DNA of 49,315 bases, counting the filler, from Jimgerdemannia flammicorona (taxonomy: Eukaryota): NCBI GenBank assembly GCA_003990765.1. It is 2 parts of 2 records of this genome, joined end to end, with 100 filler letters (N's around TTAATTAATTAA, not from the genome) between each part and the next. Parts side by side here need not be neighbours in the genome. Positions count along the whole stretch, not along the records: positions 24,712 to 49,315 come from RBNJ01000953.1; 1 more part is not named here. The stretch is one strand, 5' to 3'. The notes beneath the pieces were generated by a model that saw only the letters and a list, made by a program, of their open reading frames with translations, had not been told where the DNA came from and ran no database searches. A program made the translations under genes and the position numbers. Shown piece after piece: positions 27,901 through 31,949 of this stretch (positions within the stretch are counted from its first letter, which is position 1; each line of letters starts with the position of its first letter).

Positions 27901-28951
27901 GTTCAGTGTCTCCTATATTTATATTATAATAGTAGTATGGTGTTTTTTTTTTTTTTTTTTTTTTTGATATTCTTGAAATCTATAGCAAGAATATTCTCAA
28001 ATTCATAGAGTATCTTCTTGAGCTCTTTCTTAAGTAAGAATTCATATCTGATAGTATAACTATGCTTACTCATAGTTTCCTCCTTCTTGTGATCCAGTTC
28101 AGTAATCTTAGTACTGATAAATACTTCTTTTCCAATAGATCTAAATCTTTTCCTTTCTCTTTCTATTTCCTTGACCTCTTGACTTCTATAATTTTTGACT
28201 ATAGGACTGAGAAGATCAATATCTGTACCAGCTAGTTCTTTTTCTTGATTGAAAATAGAATTGTGGGATTGTAATTCCTAGCAATAAGTAGTATTTCTTT
28301 AGTATAATCTGAATTAATGACTCTCTCTTTAATGGTGATTTTACTTTTAGCCAGACTGCTTCTTGTCTTGAGGATTCCAATATGGTCTTTTGGAATAGTT
28401 ATCTTTAGATCAGTTGTAAGTAGAATAGTTGTCTGGGGTTTTAGTAGAGTCTTCTTTACTATAGTAATATCTATTCCAACTACATTTTTTGACTTATATT
28501 CTAGTAGTACTATATTAGAGTAGATTATCTAAATCTTAATCTTAATTTCTTTTTCATCATTACTGTCCTCTAGAAGAGCTAGTGGTTCATCATTCTCTTT
28601 CTTCTTTTCTTCTTTCTTCTCTCTTGTTTGCTTCTTGAGAACCTTCTGTCTTCTTTTATAGTAGTTTTTTTAATTTTGTTGATATACTAATAGTATTTAT
28701 TGATATATCCATACTGTATATTCTGATCTATAGGGGCAGACTTCTTGTAATATATATTCTTTTTTTTTTTTTTTTTTTTTTTTTTTGCAAGTGCGGCACT
28801 GCTTTGAGATATTTATTCACAGCGGAACTCTAACCAAAATATATTACAGAGAGATGCACAGAACATGGAAAAGGCGAGGCAAGTATTCTATACAGTACAC
28901 ACGACTAGCTATAAAATCAGCATGAAGATTAGGATATGATACAATGAATGT

Positions 28952-29263
28952 TTAACCGCCGAAACCGTAAAGCGTGCGGCCTTGTCGCTTCAGCGCGTAC
29001 ACGACGTCAAGAGACGTAACAGTCTTACGTTTGGCATGCTCAGTATAGGTGACAGCATCACGGATAACGTTCTCGAGGAAGGTCTTAAGGACACCCCGGG
29101 TCTCCTCATAGATGAGGCCGGAGATGCGCTTGACACCACCACGGCGAGCAAGACGACGAATGGCAGGCTTAGTAATACCCTGGATGTTATCACGAAGAAT
29201 CTTGCGGTGACGCTTAGTGCCGCCCTTTCCAAGACCTTTGCCTCCTTTGCCGCGACCAGACAT
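28952..29263 (-). CDS. H4: Histone H4, intronless processed retrocopy with an open frame (A15T)
   Basis: 103-aa fungal-type H4. Insert 28760-29305 has a short 5' UTR, a 3' UTR with AATAAA (28817-28812) and 27-nt poly(A) (28786-28760), flanked by the TSD TTGTAATATATATTC at 28745-28759 and 29306-29320. Confidence 0.97.
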
Positions 29264-31949
29264 GTTTGATGGGTGTGGGTGAAATTGGAAATATTGGTTT
29301 GTTGGTTGTAATATATATTCTTTAGCAATCTTCTTATACTAGTCTTTTTTACTCATTTATTTAACTTTTTTCTTTTTTTTTCTAAATAGTTACTATATAG
29401 CTTCTTCTTGCTTATTTTATCCTTTCTCTATTTTAGTTAGAACTTCTTTGTTAATATTGATAGAGATTTATATCTTCTGTCTACAGTAGATGATCTATAT
29501 CTTTTAGGTATTTAGATTGATTATTTCTCTAGTTTTATAAAGCCATTAATTGCTGATGAGAATGTTATAATTAGTTGTATTAGTTATGATTACATCTACT
29601 GAGATAGTTGCTTTTCTAAACTTAATAAGAATATCTTTGATTTTTCTTAGAGATATAGCTCTTGTACTATCTGCTATAATAAATACTAACTTGATTGCTT
29701 CTTTAACCTCTCATTTTAAATAGTTTACTGTCTTCTTACTGAGAAGACATTCTTTCACTCTAGTATTAATGATAGCTTCAAAGACTCTGTCTTTGATTTA
29801 ATATACTACATAGGTAGATATTTTGTAATTATCTTCACTCTCTTCTCTAGAGTTTTTTTTTTAAATATTATTAGCCTCAGTTATCTTCTAATCTTGATCC
29901 TTAGCTATCTCAGTGAGTCTGAATCTCATTTTTTATCTAAATATGGAAATTTATACTAGCTGACCAAAAGTTACATTGATCTTTTATTGGCTGAGATCCT
30001 TAAAGATATCATACTTGAAGATCTTAGTCTTATGAAGCTTCTTCTTCTTTTCTCTCTCACTGGCTGAAATAGTTCCTTAAATAATATCTTGAACAGCCTA
30101 TTCTAACTTTATATTTTGATATATTTCTTTAGCTTGACTCTCTATAGCAGTTTCTATCTGTTTTTCTACTAAGTTCTTCTTGAGTCTCTCTGGTAGCCTC
30201 TTGTAGAACTCCTTGCAAATATCTGTTTTAGTGATCTGAGTAAGATAAGCCTCTCATTCTTTGTTATTAGATTCTCTAATCTTCTTAAAGATAATAATAT
30301 TAATCTGTTCTTTATTTCAGATAGTATTGCTTGGCTGGGCCTTATGCTTAGTTTTACTTATATATTTATAAGAGTAGTAGTCTTTCTCTATATAGGTACA
30401 GCAGATATCTTTTTCTCTAATTTCTTTTATCATATCTCCTAAATAAGTAATCATATCAGTGAACTTTTTGGTAAGTTTCTATAATGAATCATTATATATA
30501 TCTATAAGTCTCTGGAAATTCTGATAGAAATTTTAATGAAAATTTCTATAGAAATTTCTATAAAATTTTAACTAATAGTCATAGTAACTCAAAGTAGTAT
30601 AACTATATATAGATATATCTAGTATGTATACTATATTTAGTTATAGCTTCAAATATATATAATTACTCTCTATATTAAGTATATTATAACTTTAGTTTTA
30701 CTTTCTCTAAATATAAGAATAAAGCAGTATTCTATTACAAAAAATTCTTAGATCTAACTTGTTAATAATTCTAAGTAATATCTAAACTCTACTATAAAAG
30801 ATAACTAGAACTCAGCACTTTCTTAAGAACTCAGAACTTAGAACTAATAGTTACTATTAATTATTTATAATATAATAATTTTATTAATATATAGTTTTAT
30901 TACGTTTCTCCATAGAGTCACTATTTCTCTATTATTCTATAGCTATTAGCTATAGTGTATTTCAACTAATTACTATAGTAGATATTATACTAGTTATCTT
31001 TGATACTTCAATTCTGACTCTAGTAACTCTTTTCATTATATAGTCTTATAGATATCTGGCTATCTAGTATTACTGAGTATAGGTGACCTTTATAATAGAT
31101 TTAGGACTATTAGTAATGAGCAGATGGGTATGACTATTTCTAGATAGATCTCTTTTATAAAGTTACTTTAGCTACTTGATCTTAGATAGTATCAGTATAA
31201 TTAGTAAAAATTATCTAATATCAGATTCTAGTATAGAATATATTTAGATCTTTACTTATTTCTTAATATGTTATATTGAGCTAATTCTTCAAAACTTGTT
31301 TAATATCATTAGTATAATATATAGTTCAGAGCCAGGTCGTTTATGCTGTTAGTATAATATTATTATTTGTTCTTATATAGATCATAACTGTAAATGCTAC
31401 TCTTGCTAGACCTTAGAGACTGAAGAGTATGAGAGTTATTTACTATCTTACTATTAGAGCCCTAATAGCAGTATATTATTCAAAATCATCAATGAAGGTA
31501 ATGATTGATTTATTTGAAGTATATATATCTATAAAATACTGATGGTCTTATATTTATCTTATCTGAATATCTTAGTTTGATTTATATAGTTATTTAGATA
31601 GTAGTAGTTATTCATATTTAGCTTAAAAGTGAGATATTTATCTTAAATTACTAGTTAATAGATACTAAGTTATAAATAGTAGATACCTAATCTCAGAAGT
31701 ATAGTAGATTTCTGTATCTTAGAAACTTGATCTTGTCCTGACTCTTATAGAGTTCTTAGAATATAGGAGTATAAGTTCAAAGTATATCTACTTACAGGCT
31801 TACTAGTTCTCTTACTTTTCTTTACTTTTGAACTATTTTGATCTAAAGTTTATTTACTCTAAATATTGGAAATATTTATATAAGTTTGCTAGCTATAAGG
31901 TAGCTAAGTTATAACTATATTTTCTGTAAGTTACTTTTTACAAATATAG

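Follow-up and report, generated by a model that had tools for sequence, protein, structure and literature searches.

A histone H4 unit with the hallmarks of target-primed retroposition in a decayed gypsy element of the fungus Jimgerdemannia flammicorona

We report that a stretch of 49,315 nucleotides (nt) from the Jimgerdemannia flammicorona genome assembly GCA_003990765.1 carries an intact histone H4 coding sequence inside an mRNA-shaped unit, which interrupts a decayed Ty3/gypsy-type long terminal repeat (LTR) retrotransposon. This stretch is referred to as the window; it joins parts of two records, of which RBNJ01000953.1 supplies positions 24,712 to 49,315. The source organism is an ectomycorrhizal fungus of the Endogonales (Mucoromycota), and its genome of 240 Mb has been reported to consist of >77% repeats (PMC10386755).

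The histone H4 unit and its flanking repeat

The unit was delimited by reading the sequence together with the listing of open reading frames (ORFs), and it comprises, on the minus strand, a 5' leader, the H4 frame, a 3' trailer with an AATAAA signal and an A tail (Table 1). The frame gives a Pfam histone fold and has histone H4 proteins as its closest relatives. No histone 3' stem-loop or other Rfam family was detected in 28700-29350, even at E-values up to 1, and none was predicted across the window at gathering scores.

On both sides the unit is bordered by a direct repeat consisting of perfect 18-mers, of which 15 bp are unambiguous, while 18 bp are reached by counting the TTT that is common to the repeat and the tail. 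The first three T of the plus-strand run (28760-28786) may accordingly be part of the repeat, and the tail is 24-27 nt long. On the sense strand the target-site duplication opens with AAA, into which the poly(A) tail merges. Removal of the unit together with one repeat copy yields a plus-strand pre-insertion site that reads ...TCTTT/AG..., where the T run was extended; the 3' end of the primed strand is TTT, as would result if a poly(A) tail had served as template at a nick of the T-run/A type. The same junction, TCTTT/AG, had been given in an earlier note on this DNA, which had also described a full-length H4 ORF, a 5' untranslated region of about 42 nt, AATAAA about 25 nt before a 27-nt poly(A) and a 15-18 bp target-site duplication; each of these was recovered in its place, and the junction was reproduced in the reconstructed site. 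As a separate observation, a 13-nt stretch of the H4 trailer (28836-28848) is 92% complementary to part of the target-site repeat (28746-28758), which in AT-rich DNA is probably due to chance.

The flanking repeat far exceeds what chance would give. Specifically, from the base composition of the host element a given 15-mer is expected to recur within 8 kb with a probability of ~5e-4 and a given 18-mer with ~4e-5, and in the actual AT-rich block 5 of the 10,658 15-mers recur within 1.1 kb. Moreover, the window contains ten A or T runs of at least 12 nt, and a repeat bracketing a plausible insert follows just one of them, the run at 28760-28786. Two other run-associated repeat matches were seen, namely a local duplication of 14 nt at a distance of 18 bp and a 10-nt match 5.3 kb away.

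The gypsy element and the relative age of the insertion

The host of the unit is a dead Ty3/gypsy-type element. Its LTRs are ~200 bp each and in direct orientation; BLAST aligns 31981-32161 with 24764-24944 at 85% identity over 181 bp, and over 196 aligned sites the pair is 84% identical, with 31/196 sites differing by 28 transitions and 3 transversions. The domain remnants between them, identified by six-frame Pfam searches and tblastn, are all on the minus strand and full of stops, and they follow the order weak protease, [insert], dUTPase, reverse transcriptase, RNase H and a weak integrase zinc domain. The last of these is a sub-threshold match (E 0.015) downstream of RNase H, as expected for Ty3/gypsy, and the related protein P0366 has the order protease, dUTPase, reverse transcriptase and RNase H. 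The H4 unit thus sits in the protease-dUTPase linker and is oriented like the gypsy element. The LTR pair, the remnant domains and the many stops bear out the earlier claim that the insertion had entered a dead gypsy element.

An HMMER search with the read-through gypsy frame returned 33,269 matches, the best 150 of which are 23-38% identical to it. When these best 150 of the 33,269 relatives were aligned to the window using tblastn, they marked the dUTPase (with one protein), the reverse transcriptase and RNase H, and nothing upstream of the insert. Without the insert the protease-dUTPase spacing is ~140 aa as compared to 220 aa in P0366, the relatives being too distant for this comparison to inform. 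Besides the LTR pair, no second copy of the gypsy family is present in the window. The end of the 3' LTR (24748) is adjoined by a 28-nt A run (24720-24747), followed by the gap. At 24612-24711, two runs of 44 N are split by TTAATTAATTAA, which has a stop in all six frames and resembles an artificial scaffold or concatenation linker.

The composition of the insert differs sharply from that of its surroundings. The insert has 32 CpG, an observed/expected CpG ratio of 1.08 and a GC content of 0.48, as compared to ratios of 0.01-0.05 and a GC content of 0.24-0.25 in the flanks, where two CpG remain among the 8,745 nt to one side and two among the 3,177 nt to the other; for the host element the ratio is 0.02 and the GC content 0.26. 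The G+C content of the 12.5 kb around the insert is 20-30%. For the non-coding trailer alone, with four CpG, the ratio is 0.67, and in genic parts of the window it is 0.89-1.01. Moreover, the A tail is unbroken and no difference separates the two copies of the repeat, as compared to 31/196 sites at which the gypsy LTRs differ. Since the insert keeps its CpG and the flanks are almost devoid of it, the H4 insertion came after nearly all of the decay of the gypsy element, and it is recent relative to its host, as had been proposed earlier from its GC and CpG richness. This age order is the same whether the decay was due to cytosine methylation or to a repeat-directed process. In either case, if the element had gone on decaying, an insert of 0.5 kb at its centre would probably have been affected as well.

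As to the decay itself, the AT-rich repeat blocks of the window (1-3400, 20000-24600 and 24748-32163) have observed/expected ratios of 0.02 for CpG, 0.61-0.96 for CpA, 0.56-0.82 for CpC and 1.46-1.70 for CpT, and 17 of the 28 transitions between the LTRs are CpA versus TpA. This combined pattern, which goes beyond CpG loss, is a signature of transition-driven hypermutation resembling repeat-induced point mutation (RIP) in a Mucoromycota genome. In a paper on Mucoromycota (PMC7928374), RIP is mentioned only in general terms.

Table 1. Positions of the H4 unit, its flanking duplication and the gypsy element in the window
Feature	Position	Strand	Remarks
5' untranslated region, 42 nt	29264..29305	-	Start directly abuts the repeat copy
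Histone H4 coding sequence, 103 codons + stop, ATG to TAA, intact	28952..29263	-	Pfam, homologues
3' untranslated region, 165 nt, 4 CpG	28787..28951	-	
AATAAA signal in the 3' trailer	28812-28817	-	End of signal 25 nt from the tail
Poly(A) tail, 24-27 A	28760..28786	-	Unbroken 27-nt T run on the plus strand
Target-site duplication, tail-side copy	28745..28762	-	Identical to 29306-29323; 15 bp unambiguous, 3 shared with the tail
Target-site duplication, copy at the 5' end of the unit	29306..29323	-	Identical to 28745-28762
Decayed Ty3/gypsy-type LTR retrotransposon, ~7.4 kb including the insert	24748..32163	-	
5' LTR of the gypsy element, approximate ends	31964..32163	-	BLAST core 31981-32161
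3' LTR of the gypsy element, approximate ends	24748..24946	-	BLAST, alignment
Possible aspartic protease remnant	29492..29773	-	Pfam RVP_2, E 0.044, 14 bits against a cut-off of 20.3 (sub-threshold)
dUTPase remnant	28178..28519	-	Pfam dUTPase, E 6.3e-13; tblastn with P0366
Reverse transcriptase remnant, 9 stops in 115 codons	27327..27728	-	Pfam RVT_1, E 6.9e-6; tblastn
RNase H remnant	26662..27315	-	Pfam RT_RNaseH_2, E 2e-20; tblastn

Source and coding state of the H4 sequence

The H4 protein is one residue away from RUS23357.1 of Endogone sp. FLAS-F59071 and otherwise identical to it. The difference lies at codon 16 (29216-29218), which reads ACT and encodes Thr in place of the Ala of other H4 proteins; Ala occupies the position in 228/228 motif occurrences from 183 fetched H4-like proteins, and the exact Thr-bearing sequence was not present among ~15 billion proteins. 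The ACT codon is preceded by GGC, and one G-to-A change at the CpG of an ancestral GCT would give ACT. The G+C content at third codon positions of the H4 frame is 0.54, near the 0.59-0.70 of the genes in the window, and the product of an adjacent ORF on the minus strand (38726-39700) shares 99% identity with a protein of Jimgerdemannia flammicorona. Judged by its sequence, the H4 copy derives from the host fungus itself, because it is nearly identical to the Endogone H4, has a neighbouring J. flammicorona gene and resembles the genes of the window in its third-position G+C content.

No other histone domain was found by Pfam among the ORFs scanned in the window. With Thr for an invariant Ala, and histone neighbours not found in the scanned ORFs, the locus is not a canonical histone gene. 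Nevertheless, it could be a working H4 gene kept by selection, either as a retrogene or as an ordinary intronless histone gene in repeat-rich DNA, a possibility that concerns function only and leaves the retro-origin untouched. We consider this very unlikely, although the frame is intact and one residue from an Endogonales H4, and the fact that fungal histone mRNAs are polyadenylated also counts in its favour. Upstream, decayed gypsy DNA begins 42 nt before the ATG; a histone partner gene was not found among the scanned ORFs of the window; and the changed residue is Ala in 183/183 of the fetched H4-like proteins. Furthermore, the trailer, the tail and the repeats are no less well preserved than the coding sequence, which points to youth and not to selection. 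The Thr substitution suggests a pseudogene that is beginning to decay. Given that the copy has no visible promoter of its own and that an otherwise invariant residue has been replaced, we regard it as most likely a non-functional, young processed pseudogene.

Target-primed reverse transcription and its alternatives

In our judgement it is highly probable that the unit is a retrocopy of the host's own polyadenylated H4 mRNA, made by target-primed reverse transcription with machinery of the non-LTR, or long interspersed nuclear element (LINE), type, because a complete mRNA with a correctly placed tail is combined with a 15-18-bp duplication that merges with the tail and with a TTT/A nick. With its sequence TCTTT/AG, the first-strand nick site belongs to the T-run/A class preferred by LINE endonucleases of the apurinic/apyrimidinic (APE) type, for which the consensus is TTTT/AA. 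The enzyme and the order of the nicks are what we infer from this anatomy. A LINE-type endonuclease would first have nicked the plus strand of the already decayed gypsy copy at TCTTT/AG; the freed T-rich 3' end would then have paired with the poly(A) of the mRNA and primed cDNA synthesis through to the mRNA 5' end; and a second nick on the other strand, 15-18 bp off, followed by fill-in, would have produced the flanking duplication. Poly(A) and a target duplication are given as hallmarks of L1-mediated retrocopies in PMC5131818, in agreement with the earlier note, which had taken the features of the unit as hallmarks of target-primed reverse transcription by L1-type machinery.

Several observations weigh against this reading. 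The earlier note had envisaged a LINE acting in trans, and of this proposal the mRNA-copy anatomy and the T-run/A type of the nick stood, while the LINE or L1-type enzyme itself did not emerge: neither a non-LTR reverse transcriptase nor an apurinic/apyrimidinic endonuclease was found in the scanned parts of the window (six-frame Pfam searches covering 1-3600 and 20001-32500, together with 150 of the 166 ORFs that are at least 70 aa long, with four ORFs at 47419-49200 left out). No Endogonalean genome yielded Grem-LINE1, the L1-clade family of the Mucoromycotina, according to the preprint in which this family was defined (10.1101/706580). When a 22-nt stretch of the trailer was used in a metagenome scan, it gave one chance match to an unrelated contig and no parent, and the extension of H4 obtained by translating the leader is absent from the best 120 of 5,457 protein matches, which is weak evidence. 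Pure A or T runs of 16-53 nt are present elsewhere in the window without any repeat, and the tail alone therefore proves little; it counts as evidence only in combination with the spacing of the signal and with the repeat. Finally, the retrocopy has the same orientation as the gypsy element, as LTR-mediated capture also predicts.

In such a capture, reverse transcription of the gypsy element within a virus-like particle would have switched to a co-packaged H4 mRNA and back, and H4 would have been born together with this gypsy copy. The mechanism has been documented in yeast and animals (PMC5131818, PMC5470649), and the retrocopies attributed to it (yeast Ty1; Drosophila and vertebrates, Tan et al. 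2016) resemble the present case in that they lie inside an LTR element in the same orientation. Here, both flanks belong to one LTR element, and three A are common to both sides at the tail junction. However, as described by Tan et al. (2016, PMC5131818), LTR-mediated copies have neither poly(A) nor a target duplication and have lost sequence at both ends; they take the place of a portion of the element, and the microsimilarity at their junctions has a median of 6 bp. The H4 copy, in contrast, is of full length with a tail, and it splits the gypsy element without replacing any part of it, leaving an identical 18-bp stretch on either side, while the 5' junction has no bases shared between the start of the insert and the continuing gypsy sequence. 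Moreover, an insert born with the element should share its decay, which is at odds with CpG ratios of 1.08 versus 0.02 and GC contents of 0.48 versus 0.26. Because of this age gap, a common birth of the insert and the gypsy element is excluded, and capture by the LTR element is highly improbable as the origin of the unit.

It is extremely improbable that the unit is an artefact of assembly, in which a cDNA or transcript read was joined into the repeat; an N gap lies 4 kb from the insert and no DNA sequencing run containing the stretch was found among the 20 runs listed, in which the highest share of matching words was 0.14, in soil and root metatranscriptomes, a value that carries no weight, but a misjoin does not yield a perfect 18-bp duplication of host sequence exactly at both ends of an mRNA-shaped unit. 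Insertions of H4 cDNA captured by repair at a chromosome break, independently of an endonuclease, would typically lack target duplications and T-run/A sites and would often be truncated, whereas the H4 unit retains both ends of the mRNA and is accompanied by a TTT/A site and a 15-18-bp duplication. To this route we give hardly any credence, even if sources of reverse transcriptase are plentiful in a genome reported as >77% repeats (PMC10386755).

Target-primed retroposition by LINE-type machinery, the reading that we prefer, can be compared with known systems. Unlike the mammalian retrocopies (processed pseudogenes) made by L1, the H4 copy was found in an early-diverging fungus, of an order (Endogonales) for which no L1-type element is shown in the papers cited here. 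Its nick site, TCTTT/AG, also differs from the TTTT/AA consensus. Common to both are a full mRNA, poly(A), a 7-20-bp duplication in the mammalian copies, a T-run/A nick and a site unrelated to the parent locus (PMC5131818, PMC7692494). Among fungi, the chimeric retrogenes of the Magnaporthe grisea LINE (MGL), i.e. MINE and its relatives, likewise involve a fungal LINE reverse transcriptase that copies cellular RNAs and are flanked by 10-20-bp direct repeats (PMC2104539). These retrogenes, however, are chimeras of two or three parts that template jumps have joined to the 3' region of the LINE, whereas the H4 copy is a simple, complete mRNA with its own poly(A). Zorro3, an L1-clade element of Candida albicans, is another fungal target-primed element, and for it the T-rich nicked strand has been proposed to pair with the poly(A) of the RNA (PMC1965478). 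Zorro3 enters genomic poly-A tracts without sizeable duplications, in contrast to a target of only three A and an 18-bp duplication in the present case.

With respect to the remainder of the window, decayed remnants of a Plavaka-type transposase are present in the neighbouring AT-rich block (20001-24500, minus strand; Pfam PF18759, E 5e-15 and 1e-7, in two frames). The Plavaka family is known mainly from mushroom-forming fungi. Just left of the gap, at 23960-24230, there are tandem-like repeats of ~130-160 bp with a strong G-over-C skew. Three adjacent paralogous ORFs (7005-8045, 10374-11462 and 11632-12099) resemble one another over a long body and have an F-box-like motif in common at the N terminus; they form a local cluster of one gene family. 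Homopolymer runs of 53 T (36674-36726) and 51 A (47565-47615) are located in gene-rich, GC-normal DNA and have no flanking duplication.

How host mRNAs are retroposed has been studied in depth in mammals, flies and plants. A 2017 review (PMC5470649) describes fungi as hardly examined in this respect, and no description of a comparable mRNA retrocopy in Mucoromycota was found in the literature searched. The mechanism is textbook, and such a clean case is seldom seen in fungi. L1 elements have been reported from the genomes of Mucorales and Umbelopsis (PMC7928374). A retrocopy with intact hallmarks means that target-primed machinery acted recently in this repeat-rich genome, and it implies that a poly(A)-dependent element was recently active in the Endogonales, the order from which Grem-LINE1, the L1 family of the Mucoromycotina, was reported missing. 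The undecayed insert within a heavily mutated repeat also constitutes a time marker for repeat hypermutation, and the nick site together with the duplication length provides search keys for the responsible element and for further retrocopies. We see about an even chance that an undescribed, poly(A)-dependent and endonuclease-bearing non-LTR lineage is active now, or was so very recently, in this Endogonales fungus and retroposes host mRNAs in trans. If so, the H4 copy would be the first clean molecular record of the trans-mobilisation of a cellular mRNA in Mucoromycota, and its signature of nick site and duplication length would be a handle for finding the element responsible.

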